Source of the DNA: Minisyncoccia bacterium
Lineage (GTDB): Bacteria > Patescibacteriota > Minisyncoccia > Moranbacterales > GCA-2747515
DNA length: 64,000 nucleotides
NCBI GenBank assembly: GCA_041738235.1
Contig: JBGSQF010000013.1
Location: 193,899-257,898, forward strand
Reading direction: 5' to 3'
The notes beneath the pieces were generated by a model. The model was not told where the DNA came from. It saw only the letters and a list, made by a program, of their open reading frames with translations, and made no database searches. The position numbers and the translations under genes are program-made. Below are positions 4,729 through 57,002 of the stretch, piece after piece. Numbering within the stretch: position 1 is the first letter of the stretch; each line of letters starts with the position of its first letter.

Positions 4729-6597
4729 TCATTCCAATATTGCCTTGATCCTTCGTACTCCAGCACTGGAAGATTCTTCTTTTGTGATACGGAATTTTCC
4801 TTTTATATCAGCCGTTCTTTCAACGTGTGGACCTCCGCATAGCTCTTGAGAATAGATATTCCCCTCTCGGTCCTCAACAATATATACGTTCACCATTTCA
4901 GGATATTTCTCCCAAAAACTTCCCTCAACACCCTCAGCACGCGCCGTATCCTTCGGCATCGTAGTAATTCGAACCGAACATCCCTTGGAGATCGCCTCAT
5001 TCACATAGGCCTCCACCTCATCCAAGATCTCACGACTTACTTTTTCGGGATGCGTGAAATCAAATCGTGTTCGCTCCACTGTAATATTTGAACCAGCTTG
5101 ATGTACATGATCGCCCAGGTACTTTCGAAGCCCTGCAAGCATAAGGTGTGTCACCGTGTGAAGCATGGTCGTCTTTTCACTGTGATCAGCGAGTCCTCCT
5201 TTAAATTTCCCTGCCGACGCTGTTCGTGAAAGATCACGGTGTTTTTGAAACTCTTCTCGATACTGATCAATATTTACTTCTATACCTTTCTCCTCCGCAA
5301 GTTCTTGGGTCATCTCCATCGGAAACCCATACGTAGAGAAAAGAATAAAAGCATCACGCCCATCAACAGACCCCTTTTGGGAAACCAGTCTTTCAAACTC
5401 TCGCAATCCCTTTTGCAAGGTCTTTCGAAATTTCATCTCTTCCTCTGCCACGATCCTTTCGATATTGTTCTCCTTTTCCTTAAGAAAAAGGTATGCATCG
5501 GCGTAGTACTCCGCGATGGGCAATGTGAGATCCTTGAGTGACCCTACCGACATACCAATTGAATCAGCAAAACGAATTGCGCGACGAAGGAGTCTTCGAA
5601 GTACATATCCTCTTTCCGTGTTAGATGGTACTATTCCCTCCCCGATCATAAACACCGAACCTCGAACATGGTCAGCTACGATTCGAAAAGAACGCTTATC
5701 CTCAGCGTATTTCTTTCCAGAAAGCTGTTCCATCTTTTCAATAAGACTTCGAAAAATATCAAGGCGAAAAACATCCGACTCGTCACTTGCTGCAGCCGCA
5801 ATACGCTCGAGCCCTCCACCAAAGTCGACATTACGCTGTGGCAGTTTTTCAAACTTCCCCTCTCGCTTGATAAACTCCATAAAGACAGAGTTCCCGATCT
5901 CCATAAACCGCCCACAATCACAATTTGGATGACACTCAGCACCAAATTTCTCATCATGCAGGATGTCAGTAAATTCGTAGAATACCTCACTATCGGGTCC
6001 ACCCGGTTCTCCCTCAGGCATATTGTCCGGCACGCCCGACCGGCTCCACCAATTCTTTTTTGCTCCGTACGAGAATATCCGACCCCCCTGCATCCCCACC
6101 TTGCTTGCTCGCTCTTCTGTAAGCATTTCTCTATGTTCTGCTTCAATTCCTTTTTCCCCAAAAAGCCTCTTCCAAATTTCAATGGATTCATCATCCCTCC
6201 CTACACCACTCTTTTCATCTCCTGAAAACACCGTAACGTAGAGTCGATTTGGATCAATTTTCAATTCCTGAACCAAAAAAGTGAAAAACCAGCGAAGTTG
6301 TTCTTGTTTAAAATACTCTCCTAGAGACCAGTTCCCCAACATCTCAAAGTATGTCGTATGTCTATTATCTCCAACTTCTTCAATATCCTCAGCTCGAAAA
6401 CAGCGCTGTGAATTCACCAACCGATTCCCCTCCGGATGCGATTGTCCAAGAAGATACGGAATGAGTGGTTGCATCCCCGATCCGGTAAACAACGTCGTAG
6501 GATCATTTTCCGGAAATATCGACGATGACGGAATAACCGTATGTCCGTTTTTCTGACAATATTCCAAATATTTTTTACGTATTGCATTTAACATCAT
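4729..6597 (-). CDS. alaS: Alanine--tRNA ligase, short form lacking the C-Ala domain
   Basis: FTGSGMQP and RCFRAEDIEEVGDNRHTTYFEMLGNWS are class II AlaRS signatures. HTVTHLM...H editing-domain motifs are also present. The protein is only 622 aa. Confidence 0.9.
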   Translation of the reverse strand: MMLNAIRKKYLEYCQKNGHTVIPSSSIFPENDPTTLFTGSGMQPLIPYLLGQSHPEGNRLVNSQRCFRAEDIEEVGDNRHTTYFEMLGNWSLGEYFKQEQLRWFFTFLVQELKIDPNRLYVTVFSGDEKSGVGRDDESIEIWKRLFGEKGIEAEHREMLTEERASKVGMQGGRIFSYGAKKNWWSRSGVPDNMPEGEPGGPDSEVFYEFTDILHDEKFGAECHPNCDCGRFMEIGNSVFMEFIKREGKFEKLPQRNVDFGGGLERIAAAASDESDVFRLDIFRSLIEKMEQLSGKKYAEDKRSFRIVADHVRGSVFMIGEGIVPSNTERGYVLRRLLRRAIRFADSIGMSVGSLKDLTLPIAEYYADAYLFLKEKENNIERIVAEEEMKFRKTLQKGLREFERLVSQKGSVDGRDAFILFSTYGFPMEMTQELAEEKGIEVNIDQYREEFQKHRDLSRTASAGKFKGGLADHSEKTTMLHTVTHLMLAGLRKYLGDHVHQAGSNITVERTRFDFTHPEKVSREILDEVEAYVNEAISKGCSVRITTMPKDTARAEGVEGSFWEKYPEMVNVYIVEDREGNIYSQELCGGPHVERTADIKGKFRITKEESSSAGVRRIKAILE

Positions 6598-35561: not shown

Positions 35562-35633
35562 TGGGGCGTAGCCAAGCGGTAAGGCAGGGGCCTTTGAAGC
35601 CCCCATGCGTAGGTTCGAATCCTACCGCCCCAG
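35562..35633 (+). tRNA. tRNA-Gln (anticodon UUG)
   Basis: The cloverleaf aligns position-by-position with E. coli tRNA-Gln: U1-A72, D-arm GCCAAGCGGTAAGGC, anticodon loop CUUUGAA and T-arm GTAGGTTCGAATCCTAC. No CCA is encoded. Confidence 0.85.
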
Positions 35634-35640
35634 CTAACAA

Positions 35641-35676
35641 AATATTCCACCCTTCTTGGGTGGAATATTTTTGTTT
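35641..35676 (+). terminator. Intrinsic terminator after tRNA-Gln
   Basis: 12-bp stem AATATTCCACCC/GGGTGGAATATT with a 5-nt loop and a T-run. Confidence 0.65.
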
Positions 35677-35869
35677 AGACACAGTAGGATTTGAACGGGA
35701 GGGGATCGGGGAACGGAAGCTCCCCGTCGGGGGTGACCAAGTCTATCTGTTCTAATAAATAGATGAGGACAAGAGGACGGAAGCCTTATTGAAGCGAAGC
35801 GTGTGAGATTCCTACCGCTCTAGTACCCTACTAAAAATACCCCTATAAAGCCATTTTTTTGTTACGTGC

Positions 35870-36415
35870 TTGACAATGAGTATAAAATATGCTATACTCT
35901 CATGTTACAGTACAGTTCTTTACAAGGATGTCATTGCTAATTCTTCCTATATCGAAGGGTATTGGGCTGGAAAAGTTGGAGAGAATTGGCAAGCTCTTAT
36001 CCAAGCCTCCTACTTCTCCCTGGGTTACCTCAACAGCACCAGGGACGCCGACACCATCCAGATTAAGAGTCGACTGCAGTACACAGGGTGGATGGTTCGA
36101 CCTTTCGTTGATGTTCGAGGGCAATACTTTCTCCCCACCGGGGAGGCAGGTGTTGCCTATTCCGCCTTCGGTGCTGAATGGAGTACTGAGACCCGCCTCG
36201 GGACACTCTCTCTATCGGGACTGACAGCATATGACTCAACGCCGTTTCTCCCCAACCATGCCTGGCTCGGAGAGGTCGATGCCGGCCTCTGGCATTCCTT
36301 GGGCAAAAATACTCAAGTTGGCGCTTGGGGGAAGTGGATCACTCCCCTCTCCAGCTTCAATAGCGAAGAACGTGGAGGCCTTGTCGCCGGGATCGGATTC
36401 AAGCATGTTTTCTAA
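35870..36415 (+). CDS. Hypothetical protein with an outer-membrane-barrel-like C-terminus (…GIGFKHVF)
   Basis: 181-aa ORF in a compositionally distinct stretch just 3' of the tRNA. It has alternating hydrophobic residues and a terminal aromatic Phe. The start is uncertain and no signal peptide is apparent. Confidence 0.3.
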   Translation: MTMSIKYAILSCYSTVLYKDVIANSSYIEGYWAGKVGENWQALIQASYFSLGYLNSTRDADTIQIKSRLQYTGWMVRPFVDVRGQYFLPTGEAGVAYSAFGAEWSTETRLGTLSLSGLTAYDSTPFLPNHAWLGEVDAGLWHSLGKNTQVGAWGKWITPLSSFNSEERGGLVAGIGFKHVF

Positions 36416-36759
36416 CTAATGATGGGGATGTACAAGGACGTGCACTCCTCCAGAAGGATCTTTCAGGATAAGAAAGATCTTCGATCAGCAAGGAAGCTCA
36501 ACATATCTATGTTGGGCTTTTAAAATTCTTAGATTTGCTTACGGTGTGCAAGATATGAGTTCCATATCATCCCCTATTCGTATAGCTTCATAAAAAAATA
36601 GCCCAGAAGAGCTATTTTTTATTTTTTTTCAATGAATACAGGTAGCTAGAATACAGATGGCTACTGAGCCCCTACCCTCTCGCCGTCAAGGTCGCTCGGG
36701 GACCCGCTCTCTTGGCTGTGAGTGTCATGCATTACAGATATCGGAGCTAGAACCTCAAT

Positions 36760-37264
36760 TTAAAACATTCTCAAATGTTTTACCAAGAAAGCATCATTCT
36801 GCGCGTGGGCTGTTGGAATATGAATAATGGGAAGATTGGCATTTTTGTATACTTTATCTACAAATTCGTCTCGTTTCCTTCTCCAATAATTTCTATGTGA
36901 TTCCCCATCCAATTCTATGGCAACGAGAGGGAAAGAAGTTTTCCGATCGCACAAAAGAAAGTCAACGTGCTTGGATTGTATCTTGTTTCGTAAAACGGCC
37001 TTTGTACTTTGGCTTTGATTTTGTACAACACTAAAAATATCCCAAAGGCGCACTTTCGAAAGAACGACGTATTTATCCCCCACAACGCGTGTGATCGATC
37101 GTATCGTAAAATTTTCTTTCCGAATGGTTAAACAGTGCTCGTATCACATACATTGGCTCGGTCATTTCCTCTACCATCTTCCTCTGTCGTTTTTTTAGGT
37201 ATGCCCCAAACAAGACTAGAAAGAGAAAAAGTATAATGAGAACGAGCAGAAAGATGTATTGCAT
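36760..37264 (-). pseudogene. DUF2726/NERD-like nuclease-fold gene split by a frameshift at a G5 run (~37075-37083)
   Basis: The N-terminal TM segment plus ...SERKFYDTIDHTRCGG* (37073..37264) and DKYVVLSKVRLWDIF...DFLLCDRKTSFPLVAIELDGESH (36760..37083) are contiguous DUF2726 sequence in two frames. Removing one G from GGGGG fuses them. Confidence 0.55.
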
Positions 37265-37462
37265 ATTTTTTTCAATAAAAAAGATCCCACATCGGCAATA
37301 CTCTTTCTGGCACTCATGCCACTTTCGAGATATAACCAAATACATGATACCGATCGCGAGACCGTTACTATGTACTTGAATTTGAGACCATGCCCTAGCA
37401 AAAACTATGGTTTAGGCCTATAATTCAGTTGTTGGCAATATTATATCACATTCTGAAACATT

Positions 37463-38053
37463 ATGCTTGTTGTTTGCAACACAGAAAACCTAGTTCAAGA
37501 TGTGTCAAGCATTATTACTGCTTTAGCTACAATTGCGGGTGTTTTGCTTGCAATAAAAGGATTTAGCACATGGAAAGATCAATTAAAAGGAAAGACTAAC
37601 TATGAGCTTGCAAGGAGATATTTGAGGGCCGTTTACAAGGTCAGAGATGCAATAAAATTTGTCAGAAATCCTTTTATACCAGTTGAAGAAATGAATGCAA
37701 CACTACAAGAAACCGGAAAAGACCTCGGCAGTAATAACAAAGAAACAAATAGGGCTGTCTATAGTCTTCGATGGAAAAAAGTCAATGAGGCTGAGTCTGA
37801 TTTGAAAGTCGAGCTTTGGGAGGCTGAGGTGTCATGGGGAAAGAAGGCATTGTCAGTTGAAGAAGATTTTCATGATTGTATAGTAAAAATATTTGTTGCT
37901 CTAAAAATGTATCTGGATACTGGAAATGCTTACGAAAGAAAAAAAGAGGATAGAGATTTAATTTATGACATGGGAGAAGATGACAAATTTAATCAAAATG
38001 TAGAGCAGGCCATAAAGAAGATCGAGAATTACCTTGCTCCACACTTAAAATAA
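37463..38053 (+). CDS. Uncharacterised small protein with one N-terminal TM helix (AT-rich cassette gene A)
   Basis: 196 aa with a TM segment SSIITALATIAGVLLAIKGF followed by a charged helical domain. It is markedly AT-rich relative to its flanks. Confidence 0.5.
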   Translation: MLVVCNTENLVQDVSSIITALATIAGVLLAIKGFSTWKDQLKGKTNYELARRYLRAVYKVRDAIKFVRNPFIPVEEMNATLQETGKDLGSNNKETNRAVYSLRWKKVNEAESDLKVELWEAEVSWGKKALSVEEDFHDCIVKIFVALKMYLDTGNAYERKKEDRDLIYDMGEDDKFNQNVEQAIKKIENYLAPHLK

Positions 38054-38055
38054 GC

Positions 38056-38664
38056 ATGTTGCGAAAAACCCTAGTATTTTTACCGATAGTAGTCAGCATC
38101 TTTTTAGCAATCGCCTACTTTCGTTATTTTAATCGAGGAATTGATTTTTGGGATAGTATAATTGGAATATTTTTATCATTGGTCTCCGGTATACCGTTTG
38201 CACTCTGGATTGATGGCCTAATCAAAACTAAAGAAGAAAATGAAAGGATGAGGATGGATCGACTGAGGGAGAAAGATATACTCATGTTCATAAAACAAGA
38301 AATAGATTTTAATTCGAGGTTAATTTTAGATCTTCAAAATAGAGATATTAAAAATGCGAGTTTCCATCCTTTGCAAATAGAGATGTGGGAGGTTTTAAAG
38401 AGTTCAGGTGATTTAAAATTGATTTTAGATACCGAATTACTTAATAGAGTTACCTCTGCATATGATATCATTTCTAAAGTAAAGCACTTTGAAGAAAAAG
38501 CACTGGATAACTGGAATGTCAATAATAACTCGGATAACATAGGGTCAACTTGGCAAGTACAACTAAACCGAGCAAAAAATTTTTACGGTTTATTGGATAA
38601 ATCTATGGGTGAAGCAACTGGATCAATTTCAACAAGAATAAGCGAAATCGATAAAAAATTTTAA
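38056..38664 (+). CDS. Uncharacterised 2-TM membrane protein (AT-rich cassette gene B)
   Basis: 202 aa with two N-terminal TM helices and a soluble ~140-aa C-terminal domain. It is separated from gene A by 2 nt, so the two are probably operonic. Confidence 0.5.
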   Translation: MLRKTLVFLPIVVSIFLAIAYFRYFNRGIDFWDSIIGIFLSLVSGIPFALWIDGLIKTKEENERMRMDRLREKDILMFIKQEIDFNSRLILDLQNRDIKNASFHPLQIEMWEVLKSSGDLKLILDTELLNRVTSAYDIISKVKHFEEKALDNWNVNNNSDNIGSTWQVQLNRAKNFYGLLDKSMGEATGSISTRISEIDKKF

Positions 38665-38720
38665 ACCCCTAACGAGTTTAAATAGGTTCCAACTTTATCC
38701 CACAATCGCAGCACTTTATC

Positions 38721-38748
38721 AACGGCCACCATCGGCCGTTTTATATTT
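38721..38748 (+). terminator. Intrinsic terminator of the AT-rich two-gene cassette
   Basis: AACGGCC-ACCATC-GGCCGTT followed by TTATATTT. Confidence 0.5.
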
Positions 38749-38857
38749 CCATCATCCTAACACCCCCCTACTTGAGAAATAATTTTCGCACCTTTTAGTA
38801 ATATTTAATGAATATCGACATTTTTTTATACCAACATTCAGAGAATACCCTATCTCA

Positions 38858-39985
38858 ATGTATATGGAAAATGACAAAGACCAAATCATTGCCGAGGAGC
38901 TTCTAAGAACAGCCGACATTCGGATCAATGGCGATCGTCCATGGGATATTCGAGTACATGACAAACGTCTCTATGGTCGAGCAATAAGCCAAGGTTCCCT
39001 GGCGTTTGGAGAAGCCTATATGGATGGGTGGTGGGACGTCCCGAAACTCGATGAGTTCTTCGACCGGTTGTTCCGAGCCAAGATCGAAGAAAAGATACCC
39101 GAGAGTTGGCAGACTCTTCTCTGGATCGCCGAACAAAATATATTCAATCCTCAAAGAAGATCCAAAGCCTTTGAGATAGGCAAACACCACTACGATATCG
39201 GAAACGATCTCTACAGTGCGATGCTCGATGCTCGCAAGGTCTACACGTGCGGATATTGGAAAAATGCCTCCACACTTGATGAAGCACAGGAAGCCAAGCT
39301 CGATCTGGTGTGTAAAAAAGTACGACTAGAGCCGGGTCAAAAGATCCTGGATATCGGTTGCGGCTGGGGAAGTTTTGCTAAGTTTGCGGCAGAAAAGTAT
39401 GGCGTACATGTGGTGGGTATCACCGTCTCACAAGAACAGATTAAACTCGGCAAAGAGCTCTGCAGGGGTCTTCCGGTAGAACTCTACTACCAAGACTATC
39501 GAGACATTGAGGGTGAGTTCGATCACATCGTTTCACTGGGAATGTTCGAACACGTGGGACACAAGAACTACCGAACGTATATGCAGGTGGTCCGAAAACA
39601 CCTCAAAGACGACGGTCTTTTTCTTTTGCACACTATCGGGCAAGACTACTCAACGACATCGGGCGACCCGTGGATAGAAAAATACATCTTCCCCAATTCT
39701 ATGCTCCCCTCAGTAAACCAGATCGCTGAAAACATAGAGGGGTCATTTGTTCTCGAAGATTGGCATAACTTTGGTGCGGATTACGACAAGACCCTGATGA
39801 GTTGGTTTGATAACTTCAACACACATTGGAACAAACTCAAAAACGCCTACGACGATCGCTTCTATCGTATGTGGAAATATTTTCTTCTGGTATCTGCAGG
39901 AACATTTCGATCCCGCAGGCAAAGTCTCTGGCAGATCGTTCTCTCCAAAGAAGGTGTGCCCGGGGGATATGTATCGATCCGATAG
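38858..39985 (+). CDS. cfa: Cyclopropane-fatty-acyl-phospholipid synthase family SAM-dependent methyltransferase
   Basis: CFA-synthase N-terminal region, SAM motif ILDIGCGWG and C-terminal conserved region (…YMQVVRKHLKDDGLFLLHTIG…). Confidence 0.85.
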   Translation: MYMENDKDQIIAEELLRTADIRINGDRPWDIRVHDKRLYGRAISQGSLAFGEAYMDGWWDVPKLDEFFDRLFRAKIEEKIPESWQTLLWIAEQNIFNPQRRSKAFEIGKHHYDIGNDLYSAMLDARKVYTCGYWKNASTLDEAQEAKLDLVCKKVRLEPGQKILDIGCGWGSFAKFAAEKYGVHVVGITVSQEQIKLGKELCRGLPVELYYQDYRDIEGEFDHIVSLGMFEHVGHKNYRTYMQVVRKHLKDDGLFLLHTIGQDYSTTSGDPWIEKYIFPNSMLPSVNQIAENIEGSFVLEDWHNFGADYDKTLMSWFDNFNTHWNKLKNAYDDRFYRMWKYFLLVSAGTFRSRRQSLWQIVLSKEGVPGGYVSIR

Positions 39986-39993
39986 ACACGCCC

Positions 39994-40188
39994 TTAGCTC
40001 GTTCTCGTCGAGTGACTGGACCGTGGCGGCAATTGACTCACCTGCCCCACCGCATGATTTCCAGAAGAAGCAGTCTGTGCGGATGCGGCCACTGCTCCAG
40101 CATCCACCCCCTTCTTACCCCAAACCAGAAAATATATGCCGAAAGAAAAAACGGCTATACCCGCGATGATAAACAAAAATTTTTTCAT
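39994..40188 (-). CDS. Possible small membrane protein
   Basis: 64-aa ORF with an N-terminal TM helix MKKFLFIIAGIAVFSFGIYFLVWG. It overlaps a plus-strand ORF of similar size, so coding status is uncertain. Confidence 0.3.
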   Translation of the reverse strand: MKKFLFIIAGIAVFSFGIYFLVWGKKGVDAGAVAASAQTASSGNHAVGQVSQLPPRSSHSTRTS

Positions 40189-40267
40189 ACGATATTCTAA
40201 ATTATATATCTGATCAACTTCCTACATATACGCGGAAAAAATAATTCTCTTTCAAAGTTTTGCAATA

Positions 40268-40310
40268 TACAAAAAGGACCCCTTGACGGCGGTCCTTTTT
40301 GTTTTTGCCT
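40268..40310. terminator. Hairpin AAAGGACC…GGTCCTTT with T-runs on both strands
   Basis: Located 3' of the thioredoxin-fold gene (minus strand) and of the small ORF at 39994..40188. Confidence 0.5.
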
Positions 40311-40317
40311 ATATACC

Positions 40318-41394
40318 TTACTGACAAGATGCGGCTGAGGCTACGCTCCCTGAAGCCGCCTCTGTTCCATCTCCAAATCCTGGGCTTGGAACTGCCGATG
40401 ACAACGTTGCTGAACACTCTTTTGGAGGATTCGTAAATCCAGAACAAACGGTCTTTAAGATACTTGCGCTATCACGTCCCGATTCAACCAGTTGTCCGTT
40501 AATGACCAAGCTTGGTGAACCCTGTACACCATACTTCTCGTTCAGATCTTTCTGGATATTGAAAGGTGGGTATGACCCATCCTGCGCCTTCGCATTAAAG
40601 GCTTCGGTAAGACCAAATTGCTTATCAGTAGCAGAGATACATGCTGCAATTTTAGCAGTGTTTATCTTACTACTTGCGGCACATTTTACAGAATCGCTCT
40701 CTTTGTCAAAACATGCCAAATATCCAAGATATTTTGTTGGCTCCTCTTTTTGGATACAATACTGATTCATATTCTCCTTGAATTCATTCTCTCCATGCAT
40801 CACGTATGAAACGAATTTGATGTCAAACTTGATCTTTGACCCGAGGGCTTGTACAACAGGGATCATCCCCTTCTCCATCTGCGTACCGTATGGACAGTAA
40901 CTCATCACGAAGAGTTCCACCACAGGAACATCCGTCTTCTGGGTGACCTCTGTGACCGGTGCTGGACCAGTCGGTGCTTGAGCAGCGGCGTCATCCCGCT
41001 TTACCAGGTCGATCGCCTGTGGAAAGAGCTTTTTTCCATCCTTGGTCACGTAAGCGTCCACCTTTTGTTGTGCCACTGAAATGCTCATTTTGTATATACC
41101 ATCCTCTTCCGTAAAGCTATCTATCTTAAAATCAGTGCCTGGAGCTACCAAATTCTCTTTGATGAATTGTTCTGTGCTGGCCTTTACCGCCTCAGCATTC
41201 TTTTGATCTGTATTTTTTTGGTAAAAGTAAGCACCGACTCCAACAACCGCAGCCAAGAGGACTATCGCTATTCCAACAATGATACCCTCTTTATGTTTCT
41301 TCATAAACGCTTTGCATGTTGCCATTTTCTTCTTCTGGGAAACTTCTTGTGTTGAAACCCCCTCCTTTGGACTCTCTGCTTTTTGTTCCTCCAT
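40318..41394 (-). CDS. Membrane-anchored thioredoxin-fold (DsbA-like) protein with an atypical CPYG motif
   Basis: An N-terminal TM helix is followed by VELFVMSYCPYGTQ, placed as in DsbA/BdbD CxxC sites. The C-terminus is Cys-rich. Confidence 0.45.
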   Translation of the reverse strand: MEEQKAESPKEGVSTQEVSQKKKMATCKAFMKKHKEGIIVGIAIVLLAAVVGVGAYFYQKNTDQKNAEAVKASTEQFIKENLVAPGTDFKIDSFTEEDGIYKMSISVAQQKVDAYVTKDGKKLFPQAIDLVKRDDAAAQAPTGPAPVTEVTQKTDVPVVELFVMSYCPYGTQMEKGMIPVVQALGSKIKFDIKFVSYVMHGENEFKENMNQYCIQKEEPTKYLGYLACFDKESDSVKCAASSKINTAKIAACISATDKQFGLTEAFNAKAQDGSYPPFNIQKDLNEKYGVQGSPSLVINGQLVESGRDSASILKTVCSGFTNPPKECSATLSSAVPSPGFGDGTEAASGSVASAASCQ

Positions 41395-41477
41395 ACTTTT
41401 TTATAACTTGTTATTTATGAACCGCGTTCGTACAGCATATCATATTTAGAAAAAAGAACAATCTCCAGCTCAACGAT

Positions 41478-42749
41478 CTAAGGCCCATGAGATATGGCCG
41501 TTCCAGCCACAAATCCCGTTGTCCAACAAAGTTGTAAGCTATATCCACCCGATGGCCGATCAATATCCAAAACATCTCCCACTATATAAAGATTGGGATA
41601 AAGACGTGACCGCATATATTTGAAGTCCACTTCTTTGAGATCAACACCTCCACTCGTTACGATCGCTCTTTCTTCACCCAAGAGATCAATTATGCTCACG
41701 CGAAGGTCTTTACATATCCGAACAAGTTCCGCACGTTCCTTTCGAGTGACCGTAGATGAAACCTTATCAGGATGAATACCTGCAAGCTCCAAAAAGGTAG
41801 AAGCGCAAATGGGTGGAACAAATCCACTCAGTGCATTTTTCATCTGCTTGTTCTTTTGTTCATTCAGATGTGCCAGAAACTCCCTATCCAACTCCTCATA
41901 ATTCAAATGAGGAAATAGATCGATGGAAAGAGGTACTTCTCCTTCGTGGAGAAGTTCTCCGATACGTCGGCTTCTATTAAGTGCTAGCGGACCACTGAGC
42001 CCAAAATGCGTAAACAAAAGTTTTCCCTTTTTAGGCTCCTTCTTCTTGCCTTCCCGAATGACCGACAGCGTTGCCTCCGAAAAACTCGCCCCGGACATTC
42101 GGCCTATCCACTTTTCTTTGACACGTAGTGGCACCAAAGCCGGGCGTGCCATCTCTACCAAGTGTCCAATGCTCCTCAGCCACTTAAATCCATCTCCCGT
42201 CGACCCCGTTTCTGGATGAGACTTCCCGCCCGTTGCCAGAATGTAAGCATCTGCCGAGATCACTTCTCCATTTTTCCGACGAACACCTGTAATAACGCCA
42301 TTCTTTGCTTCCAATCCCATAACCTCTGCGTGAAATACTATATCCACTCTGCCCTTCTCCATATACCGTCCAAGAGCATCCCAAATAGATTGCGCATTAT
42401 CACTTGCAGGGAACACCCTCTTTTCCGCCTCCACCTTTATCGGAACATTCCATTTCTCAAAAAAGTCCAGTGTATCCTGAACACCAAATTGTGCCATTGG
42501 AGAAAAAAGGAACTTTTTAGCATCACCAAATTTGCCCAAGAATATATCCACATCAAACTCAGCATTGGTCACATTGCATCGCCCTCCTCCCGTCAAGAGA
42601 AGCTTCTTGCCTAAGGACTCATTTTTCTCCAACAGCAAAACACGTGCACCCAGTTCAGCTGCCCGCCCTGCCGACATCATTCCTGCCGGCCCACCCCCTA
42701 TAACCACAACATCGTATTTGGTCATTTGAATAAACTCATCACGTATCAA
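41478..42749 (-). CDS. HI0933/BaiN-family FAD-dependent oxidoreductase
   Basis: YDVVVIGGGPAGMMSAGRAAELGARVLLLEK FAD-binding motif and the diagnostic TGGGRCNVTN. Confidence 0.85.
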   Translation of the reverse strand: MIRDEFIQMTKYDVVVIGGGPAGMMSAGRAAELGARVLLLEKNESLGKKLLLTGGGRCNVTNAEFDVDIFLGKFGDAKKFLFSPMAQFGVQDTLDFFEKWNVPIKVEAEKRVFPASDNAQSIWDALGRYMEKGRVDIVFHAEVMGLEAKNGVITGVRRKNGEVISADAYILATGGKSHPETGSTGDGFKWLRSIGHLVEMARPALVPLRVKEKWIGRMSGASFSEATLSVIREGKKKEPKKGKLLFTHFGLSGPLALNRSRRIGELLHEGEVPLSIDLFPHLNYEELDREFLAHLNEQKNKQMKNALSGFVPPICASTFLELAGIHPDKVSSTVTRKERAELVRICKDLRVSIIDLLGEERAIVTSGGVDLKEVDFKYMRSRLYPNLYIVGDVLDIDRPSGGYSLQLCWTTGFVAGTAISHGP

Positions 42750-55035: not shown

Positions 55036-55491
55036 ATGAGAATCGTTATTTGCGGAAGCATCGACTTTACCCCAAAGATCAAAGAAGTTGCAGATATCTT
55101 GATTCGACAAGGACATACGGTCGACATACCTCTGACCAGTCAACGCATCATCAATGGTGAGCTTACTCTTCAAAAATTTTTAGAAGAAAAAGGTAAAAAC
55201 ACTACTTCAACTTCAAAAAATGTGATCCGCAAGATCAATGATGACGTCATCAAAAGATACTACTTAAAGATACAGGCATCCGATGCCATTCTCGTTCTTA
55301 ACGTAGAAAAAAAAGGGATAGCCCATTATATCGGTGGGAACGTCTTTCTTGAGATGGGATTTGCTCATGTGCTCAACAAAACAATCTATCTTTATAACAA
55401 GATCCCCCAAATGGCCTATACTGAAGAGATAGTAGCTATGCAACCCATAATCCTTGATGGCAACCTAAATCAAATTACAAAGGCTATATGA
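55036..55491 (+). CDS. Nucleoside 2-deoxyribosyltransferase-like / DNPH1 (Rcl)-family protein
   Basis: MRIVICGSID...ASDAILVLNVEKKGIAHYIGGNVFLEMGFAHVLNKTIYL parallels the Rcl fold motif SIYFCGSI...VGYELG. It overlaps the next gene by 4 nt. Confidence 0.55.
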   Translation: MRIVICGSIDFTPKIKEVADILIRQGHTVDIPLTSQRIINGELTLQKFLEEKGKNTTSTSKNVIRKINDDVIKRYYLKIQASDAILVLNVEKKGIAHYIGGNVFLEMGFAHVLNKTIYLYNKIPQMAYTEEIVAMQPIILDGNLNQITKAI

Positions 55492-57002
55492 AAACGCTAC
55501 TTGTTCTTCCTGTTCTGACCATGATCTCGATCGCGATCTATTCTTGTATCAGACTCTTCTTCTTTTTTACCGCAGATTACGGTTTTTGGGATAAGCTCTT
55601 TGCCATATTTCTCATACTTGGAGAGGCGTACATGATCATTCATGCTCTCGGTTTTATGATCAATGTCTTCAAGATAGATAGGCAAAAAGCAGCACCCCCG
55701 GCAAAAATCCCGGAAGGGTCACACCCAAGCGTCGCTGTCGTAGTAGCCGCAAAACATGAACCAAAAGAGGTTTTGGAGAGAACCTTTACAACACTGGCAT
55801 CAATGGACTATCCCGATTTTAACCTCTATCTATTGGACGGATCTACTGACGAAAAATACATTCAACAGGACAAGGACATTTCTCGAAGATACCACGTAAC
55901 GTATTTACATCCCAGCCAATTTCACGGAGCAAAGGCGGGTATAATAAATTTCTTCCTACAATATTCAGAAGAAAAATACATGGCAGTGTTCGATGCTGAC
56001 CAAAATCCCATGCCAGATTTTCTCAAAAAAGTAGTGGCTGTCGCTGAACAAGATGAAAATATAGCTTTCGTACAAACTCCACAATTTTACTCCAACTTGG
56101 CAGTAAGTCCTATCGCAAAGGGATCTGCTTTACAGCAAGCAGTTTTTTATGAAAGTATTTGCGAAGGAAAGAATACTAGTAATGCCATGTTTTGTTGCGG
56201 AACCAACGTGCTCTTCAGGATAAGCGCCCTGGAAAAAGTGGGTGGCTTTGTTGAGACTTCCATCACAGAAGATTTTGCCACATCAGTCAAACTCCACACC
56301 GAAGGTTTTAGGTCGGTCTATTACAATCACGCTAACGTTTTTGGTTTGGCTCCAGAAAGCCTATCAGCTTACTTTAAACAACAGTACCGATGGTCTGCAG
56401 GAACCGTAGGCGTTTTAAAAGAATTACTTTCTCGTTTTTCGAAGGACCCTGGTTCCCTTACTCTTGGTCAATGGTGGGAATACTTCTTATCATCCACCTA
56501 TTATTTTGTCGGTTGGGCATTCTTCCTACTTGTCATATGCCCACCGGTCTATCTCATATTTGATCTTCCCTCTTACTTCATCAGTCCTAAAGTATACATA
56601 TTGACATTTATGCCCTATTTCGTACTCACGCTATTCGTCTTTTATGGTATAATGAAGAAAAGAAAATATCATATCAGTGAGGTTTACAATGGGATCATTC
56701 TTGCCTCTGTGAGTTATCCGATCCTAATGCAAGCGGTCACCATGTCCTTATTGGGGAAAAAGATCACCTTCAATGTTACTCCGAAAGGCAAAACTCGAAA
56801 GATCCCTTTCCTCAAACTCTGGCCATGGACAGTTATGCTGATCATCAATGTCATAGCTGTATGCGTCGGTATATTCAAATTCCATAACAACCCTTACGCA
56901 ATAGGAGTTAACATGTTATGGTGCGTCTATCACATATTCATACTTTCCCATGTCTATTATTTAAACCACCTAAACACAAACAATAAACGCTACTCCATAT
57001 GA
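55488..57002 (+). CDS. Processive GT2 beta-glycosyltransferase, cellulose-synthase (BcsA)-like, without a PilZ domain
   Basis: All four processive-synthase motifs are present: D,D (LYLLDGSTDE), DxD (VFDADQNP), TED (SITEDFATS) and QxxRW (QQYRWSAGT). Two N-terminal and five C-terminal TM helices. Confidence 0.8.
   Translation: MKTLLVLPVLTMISIAIYSCIRLFFFFTADYGFWDKLFAIFLILGEAYMIIHALGFMINVFKIDRQKAAPPAKIPEGSHPSVAVVVAAKHEPKEVLERTFTTLASMDYPDFNLYLLDGSTDEKYIQQDKDISRRYHVTYLHPSQFHGAKAGIINFFLQYSEEKYMAVFDADQNPMPDFLKKVVAVAEQDENIAFVQTPQFYSNLAVSPIAKGSALQQAVFYESICEGKNTSNAMFCCGTNVLFRISALEKVGGFVETSITEDFATSVKLHTEGFRSVYYNHANVFGLAPESLSAYFKQQYRWSAGTVGVLKELLSRFSKDPGSLTLGQWWEYFLSSTYYFVGWAFFLLVICPPVYLIFDLPSYFISPKVYILTFMPYFVLTLFVFYGIMKKRKYHISEVYNGIILASVSYPILMQAVTMSLLGKKITFNVTPKGKTRKIPFLKLWPWTVMLIINVIAVCVGIFKFHNNPYAIGVNMLWCVYHIFILSHVYYLNHLNTNNKRYSI

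Follow-up and report, generated by a model that had tools for sequence, protein, structure and literature searches.

In a 64-kb window of contig JBGSQF010000013.1 from a Minisyncoccia bacterium (the window denotes this whole stretch, to which unlabelled coordinates refer), two small adjacent open reading frames (ORFs), here termed gene A and gene B, encode membrane proteins of separate unnamed families. A preliminary description of this DNA had taken them for a self-contained two-gene cassette and a candidate defence module. Our analysis indicates that A and B are in all likelihood independent of each other, two single-gene cassettes stacked in a variable cargo hot spot beside a tRNA gene. For A we favour, by a modest degree, a role as a membrane-anchored accessory or effector protein of anti-phage and anti-plasmid defence, with a Csx28-like mechanism as the preferred one, whereas B is an accessory membrane protein without a visible defence link.

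The ORF listing placed A at 37463–38053 (196 amino acids, aa) and B at 38056–38664 (202 aa) on the plus strand, separated by 2 nucleotides (nt), in agreement with the coordinates and spacing given before. Compared with homologues of about 80% identity, the ratio of nonsynonymous to synonymous substitution rates (dN/dS, Nei–Gojobori) was 0.12 for A and 0.07 for B, low values from which it follows that both are protein-coding, real genes under purifying selection. The G+C content (GC) of the two genes together was 0.343, with 0.360 for A, 0.324 for B and a GC at third codon positions (GC3) of about 0.30, whereas 1.2-kb segments across the 64 kb averaged 0.446 with a standard deviation of 0.025. 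The AT-richness noted before was confirmed by a sliding GC profile, the window minimum of which falls on A and B; no other 1.2 kb of the whole stretch is lower in GC, and equally low segments make up only 0.16% of the sliding set. The A–B segment is foreign, AT-rich DNA in this candidate-phyla-radiation genome. As for the terminator ascribed to the two genes, a hairpin does follow B (38721–38740; 7 bp, 5 of them G-C, then TTTATATTT), but with 2 sites of this kind in the terminator scan and 1.8 expected from shuffled sequence, it is not significant by itself.

The independence of A and B follows from the lack of co-occurrence, from close copies that stand alone, from the low GC that each gene has of its own and from homology that ends at the gene borders. 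In a search for homologues of the pair, both genes together were found at none of the 62 loci compared (tblastn, E ≤ 1e-3). No B gene was detected among about 35 other fetched A-bearing loci, A was absent from all seven B lineages, and an hmmsearch with B profiles on the four neighbours to either side of 29 A homologues retrieved no B-family protein, its sole weak match of 17.8 bits being an A-homologue ORF. An A gene of 80% identity lies alone after an ABC-transporter operon (L012–15; L-numbers are labels of comparison loci, with L016/17 and L018/L029 as paired labels), and a B gene of 80% identity lies alone in the same hot spot between dnaX and an HI0933-like gene (L007–11), where the 620 nt upstream contain no A-like ORF. 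A 72%-identical A occupies this hot spot in a Minisyncoccota metagenome-assembled genome (MAG; L001), where its companions are a rolling-circle Rep, proteins of 259 and 150 aa, and an AIPR abortive-infection gene. Nucleotide homology to relatives (blastn) covers one gene each, extending from 37396/37462 to 38053 for A and from 38074 to 38662 for B. With co-occurrence missing, each gene solitary in relatives and homology stopping at the gene borders, the notion of a self-contained two-gene cassette could not be upheld.

The junction of the two genes (38043–38058), CTTAAAATAAGCATG, resembles the 3′ end of A in relatives lacking B (L012, about 6578–6591) and also the 5′ leader of B in relatives lacking A (L007, 2130–2147), the leader in L007 being the tail of an unrelated 66-aa ORF. 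Judged from these resemblances, the A and B cassettes may have been joined at a microhomology of 9–11 nt, and B is probably co-transcribed with A only through its landing position. A common origin of the two proteins was rejected, as the comparison of their profiles yielded an hhalign probability of 10%. Dropping the pair spares cloning work that would be built on a false two-gene unit, and it would mean that hot spots stack unrelated single-gene cassettes into operon-like arrangements.

The AlphaFold2 model of A (pLDDT 90.6) is all-helical, with a long N-terminal helix containing a transmembrane (TM) segment followed by a bundle, in line with the single TM segment plus helical domain that the preliminary description had assigned to it. 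Lysine and arginine are distributed unevenly in the family, with 0.4 residues before the TM segment and 5.9 after it; the predicted topology is N-out/C-in, with a soluble helical bundle of about 160 aa in the cytoplasm. A word-indexed search yielded 78 homologues. R61, R68, E76, Y100 and R103 as well as Y47, W125 and G126 of A are invariant, suggesting, as far as conservation can tell, a binding or interface surface. The family has no conserved histidine and no recognisable catalytic motif. Pfam, NCBIfam and PADLOC contained nothing that matched A at E ≤ 0.1, profile searches of the PDB turned up no relative of solved structure by sequence, and BFVD yielded no significant structural match. The PHROG groups matched by the family (17209, 6169 and 7125) are all of unassigned function, 22 of the 78 members matching 17209 with their N-terminal part. 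Since the family is missing from Pfam, NCBIfam and PADLOC and its PHROG matches carry no function, it appears to be undescribed, although small membrane proteins carried along in defence islands are a familiar kind. LemA, a TM helix joined to a four-helix bundle, was rejected as an identity for A, its Pfam family matching none of the 78 members.

A pattern-based scan of 185,579 species genomes confirmed 32 loci with an A homologue; the family is sporadic over at least eight phyla, and its members occur in Patescibacteria lineages, Acidobacteriota, Gemmatimonadota, Proteobacteria, Verrucomicrobiota, Chloroflexota and Hydrogenedentes. In 30 of the 32 genomes the homologue is AT-richer than its flanks, by a mean of 6.6 percentage points. 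ORFs were called in the 32 loci, and co-oriented contiguous neighbours were scanned against Pfam and PADLOC. Restriction-modification (RM), GmrSD–HNH, SNF2/ResIII or HEPN_AbiV genes are operon neighbours of A at no fewer than 9 of 29 species-level loci (Table 1), with L016/17 and L001, where an AIPR gene lies about 1.3 kb from A, as further cases; at six of those loci, A is placed between subunit genes of one system. Mobile elements are a second recurrent setting. A Rep gene of the REP_ORF2-G2P type lies within 3 kb of A in three lineages, distant relatives reside on Leptospira, Caballeronia and Paraburkholderia plasmids beside toxin–antitoxin genes, transposases and a Shedu gene, and another distant relative is a lone opposite-strand gene of Pseudomonas phage Atpa001. 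IMG/VR viral contigs contained no A relative in a pattern scan and tblastn, and a viral origin of A and B was rejected, the IMG/VR scans having returned no relative of either. The defence module proposed earlier therefore survives in part, the A family being tied to defence islands and mobile elements and the B family showing no defence signal. The balance of this evidence tips slightly towards A being a defence-associated gene.

Several observations on individual A loci can be added. In L016 and L017 (L016 30–100; L016/L017 72–4520), the A homologue is found on an apparent tRNA-adjacent integrative element. Its genes for a serine recombinase, a REP_ORF2-G2P Rep, a helix-turn-helix (HTH) protein and a reverse transcriptase precede those of DUF4238, GmrSD_N and HEPN. 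Small proteins neighbour A at L027 (3491–3967, DUF4760), L023 (5386–7707), L016 (5614–6573), L025 (6585–7328) and L049 (5443–5856). By eye, several unannotated A-neighbour proteins contain HEPN-like Rx4-5H motifs, and small HEPN proteins may be recurrent partners of A.

The AlphaFold2 model of B (pLDDT 80.9) is likewise all-helical and consists of a 2-TM hairpin followed by a four-helix bundle, matching the two TM segments plus soluble domain described before; that neither A nor B belongs to a family that can be named also held in Pfam, NCBIfam and PADLOC. Based on charge counts in the family, B is predicted to have its N-terminus inside, the loop outside and its C-terminus inside. The TM hairpin is conserved in sequence, with a GxP in its second helix, and the protein has an invariant R96 and H104 at a spacing of Rx7H as well as an 'NRxTSAY' stretch. 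A word-indexed search returned 10 close homologues and an exhaustive profile search 324 family representatives at E ≤ 1e-3; the profile scans of the family against Pfam and PADLOC took in 111 members. The alignment of these 111 sequences was without a conserved block, and a closer alignment added only one further metagenome locus. Scanning the family against Pfam produced only scattered membrane-protein noise, and profile searches of the PDB yielded no relative of solved structure by sequence.

Five genomic contexts were obtained for the B family, a small sample. B homologues lie downstream of an M23 peptidase and upstream of a pyrophosphatase and a dCMP deaminase (the L007–9 hot spot), directly before rpsL/rpsG (the contig of P0086), amid consecutive methyltransferase genes of a Chloroflexi MAG (L053), near HipA and a helicase, and among glycolysis genes with ruvX (L062). 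No recurrent defence gene accompanied the family in these five contexts, and searches of plasmids, phages and IMG/VR, the family consensus included as a query, returned no copy. A close homologue has a GC of 0.32 compared with 0.47–0.49 in its flanks. B is therefore an accessory membrane protein, foreign by its GC in close relatives. A B-like tblastn match elsewhere in the window (55491–55619) covers only the TM segment at the N-terminus of a membrane ORF of 504 aa, by eye a family-2 glycosyltransferase.

Csx28, an accessory protein of type VI-B2 CRISPR-Cas13b, combines a TM helix at its N-terminus with a four-helix bundle in the cytoplasm and assembles into an octameric pore that depolarises the membrane in the presence of active Cas13b (bioRxiv 10.1101/2021.11.02.466367). 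According to the AlphaFold2 model and the charge counts, set against this published description, the predicted architecture and topology of A are the same, and A too is an accessory-type gene beside nuclease-based defence systems. Unlike Csx28, A has no HEPN motif and no CRISPR context, and there is no sequence homology between the two, so A is not a member of the Csx28 family. Csx28 was absent from the PDB profile search of A at E ≤ 10, and no cas family was present among the Pfam matches of operonic A neighbours or among the top 25 of 364 families in the PADLOC view. DUF4760 proteins (PF15956) resemble A in their small size, in the order of an N-terminal TM helix and a helical domain, and in similar 'WKxQL' stretches, and a DUF4760 gene directly follows the A homologue between hsdM and hsdS in L027. 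Assignment of A to DUF4760 was rejected, as PF15956 matched none of the 78 members at E ≤ 0.01 and hhalign gave 14% against the bona fide DUF4760 neighbour. The anticodon nuclease PrrC, a soluble ATPase-nuclease, is encoded by a gene embedded in a type I RM locus and serves as a backup defence once restriction is blocked. A homologues are similarly placed among RM genes in L025, L027, L037, L039, L040 and L042; in contrast to PrrC, A is a predicted membrane-anchored helical bundle without a recognisable catalytic motif, and its link to RM is positional.

With its two N-terminal TM helices and soluble, predicted cytoplasmic domain, B has the outline of 2-TM effectors such as SLATT proteins, those of CBASS and Pycsar, and the Cap1/Cam1-like effectors of type III CRISPR, a likeness that the preliminary description had drawn towards SLATT, CBASS and Pycsar. 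These were rejected, as Pfam SLATT matched 0 of 111 B and 0 of 78 A members and the PADLOC 2TM-effector models matched one member each; no cyclase, CARF or SAVED gene adjoined B in the contexts seen, nor was there a cyclase among the window neighbours. For the HEPN motif and profiles, the outcome was negative as well: the spacing in B is Rx7H, no member of its family matched a HEPN profile in Pfam, hhalign gave at most 2% against HEPN-type A neighbours, and A lacks a conserved histidine. In PADLOC, to which the preliminary description had pointed, A had no match and B solely a weak one to KwaA of the Kiwa system (E 0.0026). This match is judged to be chance or compositional, because it is confined to the TM region (residues 4–78) and absent from the 110 other members, and KwaA was rejected; KwaB/DUF4868 had no PADLOC match in A and the four other island proteins scanned, and no Pfam match. 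The sensor bundles of 4HB_MCP, TorS and NarX are extracytoplasmic, lying between two TM helices and feeding an output domain, whereas for A and B a cytoplasmic bundle lacking an output domain is predicted. A match to a four-helix bundle reflects a generic fold only, since designed helical bundles score equally well.

In the reading that we prefer, A, which is often co-transcribed with nuclease-based defence genes (between methylase and nuclease or specificity genes, after SNF2, before HEPN_AbiV), would oligomerise through its cytoplasmic bundle and would perturb or depolarise the membrane once the partner nuclease system is engaged or disabled; alternatively, it could work by itself in abortive infection or exclusion. 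That A forms a pore in the manner of Csx28, an analogy of architecture and setting, seems doubtful when taken as a claim of its own. The break in the adjacent DUF2726 gene leaves A in the window without an intact enzymatic partner, so that A may act alone or be a remnant. If our reading is right, A represents a compact membrane component that attaches to many restriction and abortive-infection systems, the principle of Csx28, a membrane pore amplifying nuclease immunity, extends beyond CRISPR, and both apply to candidate-phyla-radiation bacteria, in which phage defence is poorly known. The test is cheap, as the family is about 190 aa long, has no recognisable cofactor and occurs in natural methylase–A–nuclease operons that can be cloned directly. 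A bolder version, which we hold to be rather unlikely, would make the A family a general, Csx28-like membrane plug-in for nuclease-based immunity that was recruited across many phyla by type I, II and III-like RM, GmrSD-type restriction, SNF2-helicase systems and HEPN/AbiV modules. Such a plug-in would convert the engagement or inhibition of a nuclease into membrane depolarisation or growth arrest, and in the window its new coupling to the 2-TM protein B would have created a fresh effector pair.

Some points weigh against our reading of the two genes. The function proposed for A draws on guilt by association, A having no detectable homology to a characterised protein; the 9 of 29 loci are a raw count, taken without the background rate of defence genes in these genomes; and about half of the A loci have non-defence operon neighbours, such as histidine kinase, EpsG-like, SET-domain, cupin, MsrB, ABC-transporter and glycosyltransferase genes. 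Further, the low GC common to A and B, their 2-nt gap and the single terminator fit one transcription unit, and a local functional link between them may exist here. On the view of the preliminary description, the two genes would make up one defence module in which the 2-TM protein B acts as the membrane effector and A as its sensor or partner. The genes do share strand, GC and GC3, with one hairpin after B and none between them, and the conserved B hairpin with its GxP is what a functional membrane element would be expected to have. Moreover, A homologues are often followed at 0–80 nt by a variable small gene (HEPN_AbiV, DUF4760 or, by eye, Rx4-5H proteins), so A might be an adaptor with swappable partners, B being one of them. 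Yet each family is missing from the loci of the other, their close copies are solitary with homology breaking at the gene borders, B reached an hhalign probability of at most 2% with every A-neighbour protein tested, and no defence gene recurs beside the B family, which together leave a functional module improbable.

A may serve the mobile element that carries it, as a superinfection-exclusion, anti-defence or maintenance gene of the moron or cargo type, its presence in RM operons then being hitch-hiking. The relative in the Pseudomonas phage, the PHROG matches, the Rep and recombinase genes near A in three lineages and the plasmid copies, which lie in long same-strand runs of small hypothetical genes, would suit such a role. 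However, A sits inside chromosomal RM operons at six species-level loci (seven lineages with the SNF2 operon of L018/L029) with gaps of −4 to about 120 nt, and a position between enzyme subunit genes is unusual for an anti-defence gene; the empty IMG/VR and BFVD searches count against it as well, and we give it little weight. Equally poor prospects attach to the idea that A and B are both ordinary small envelope or membrane proteins, whose low GC and patchiness would stem from accessory-genome turnover. Helical-bundle folds are generic, several A homologues adjoin glycosyltransferase, ABC-transporter or EpsG-like genes, and the B family is seen among housekeeping genes; for B alone, the idea is quite plausible. 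For A, it is at odds with a confirmed match in only 32 of the 185,579 species genomes spread over many phyla, with the consistently AT-richer composition relative to the flanks, and with RM or defence genes as direct operon partners at at least 9 of 29 loci. A role of A in defence thus remains our preferred reading.

Table 1 Features of the window and gene arrangements around A in comparison loci
Feature	Location	Strand	Remarks
tRNA-Gln (UUG)	35562–35634	+	ARAGORN; Rfam tRNA 67.9 bits; conserved left anchor of hot spot
17-nt imperfect direct repeat of tRNA-Gln 3′ end	35807–35823	+	Repeat search
181-aa ORF, island cargo	35870–36415	+	GC 0.51, locally 0.57; no family match
DUF2726 gene (nuclease fold), N-terminal TM segment	36760–37345	−	Split in two frames
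LOOT RNA (Rfam RF03000)	37297–37418	−	cmscan 59.1 bits (gathering 46.4), E 8e-10, model 1–121
33-nt block	37401–37433		100% identical in L001 (5937–5969), upstream of A homologue
Gene A	37463–38053	+	Predicted N-out single TM (~residues 15–33), cytoplasmic helical bundle; unnamed family
Gene B	38056–38664	+	Predicted N-in 2-TM hairpin (~4–24, 34–56), cytoplasmic four-helix bundle; separate unnamed family
Terminator-like hairpin and T-rich run	38721–38748	+	Downstream of B
HI0933-like flavoprotein gene	41478–42749	−	blastn: conserved in L001, L007, L008; right anchor
EcoRI-type methylase / A / GmrSD_N+HNH nuclease	L037, L039, L040, L042		AAA_21 ATPase extra in L040
hsdR, hsdM/S / A	L025		
LexA-like, hsdM / A / DUF4760 / hsdS	L027		
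DUF2326, SNF2 helicase / A / N6_N4 methylase, ResIII	L018/L029		
A / HEPN_AbiV	L030		HEPN_AbiV E 2e-18; stop and start codons overlapping
hsdR upstream of A	L044		
Recombinase, Rep, HTH, reverse transcriptase / A / 319-aa protein (RNRIVH motif) / DUF4238 / GmrSD_N / HEPN	L016/17		Precomputed annotations

The region from dnaX and tRNA-Gln to the HI0933-like gene (35635–41477) is a variable cargo hot spot. L001 and L007–9 retain dnaX, tRNA-Gln and the HI0933-like gene, with different cargo between these anchors (blastn); the tRNA gene is 90–92% identical in relatives (L001, L009), whereas the DNA downstream of it diverges. The cargo of the window comprises the 181-aa ORF, DUF2726, the LOOT RNA, A, B, a cyclopropane-fatty-acid-synthase-like gene and a thioredoxin-like lipoprotein; that of L001 comprises Rep, small TM proteins, A, the AIPR gene and a HAD hydrolase, and that of L007–9 an M23 peptidase, B, a pyrophosphatase, a dCMP deaminase and an ASCH protein. 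A search of the window island for remnants of Rep or AIPR found none. The conserved flanks, variable cargo and deviant base composition agree with the tRNA-adjacent island of the preliminary description, and its frameshifted DUF2726 neighbour was recovered as well: PF10881 matched the ORF 36760–37083 (E 5.7e-23, 81.5 bits against a cut-off of 24.7), and the N-terminal part forms a separate, overlapping minus-strand ORF (37073–37345), with a likely true start at about 37264. The split near 37073–37083 probably marks a pseudogene or an assembly error. The repeat of the tRNA 3′ end matches 35617–35633 at 14 of 17 bases (82% identity) and may be the remnant of an att site, although a short two-copy repeat could also arise by chance. 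The 181-aa ORF ends in ...GIGFKHVF, similar to an outer-membrane β-barrel signature, which is odd for a candidate-phyla-radiation genome.

The LOOT RNA lies between DUF2726 and A and is divergent from A, its 3′ end being 33 nt upstream of the likely DUF2726 start; a TGnTATAAT-like element on the minus strand (37448–37440) is located 22 nt upstream of its 5′ end. The RNA had been overlooked in the preliminary description, which let the module begin at 37380. Positions 37380–37418, counted there as upstream region of A, are the 5′ part of the opposite-strand LOOT. The 33-nt block shared with L001 overlaps the 5′ end of LOOT and contains a plus-strand TATAAT (37419–37424), the adjoining A coding sequence being 73% identical; L001 lacks the remainder of LOOT beyond this block, which could be a promoter, the LOOT 5′ end or a recombination site.

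Three more LOOT RNAs with 75–91 bits were observed on IMG/VR viral contigs (L140, 2421–2538, minus strand; L183, 5922–6043, plus strand; L202, 8399–8517, plus strand), each 17–44 nt upstream of a co-directional ORF. These ORFs are all of different kinds, by eye a PD-(D/E)xK-like protein of 369 aa, a TM-anchored trypsin-like protease and a large secreted, maybe peptidoglycan-binding protein. The position of LOOT copies close upstream of co-directional ORFs of differing kinds suggests, from four cases, that LOOT is a 5′ leader of mobile-element cargo genes and not a free-standing small RNA. LOOT as a partner specific to nuclease genes was rejected, as the ORFs following the four copies differ in kind. 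Two IMG/VR contigs also harbour group I introns (L121, 7912–8303; L229, 1017–1211) with a common CCTAAAC...GCATGG hairpin motif.

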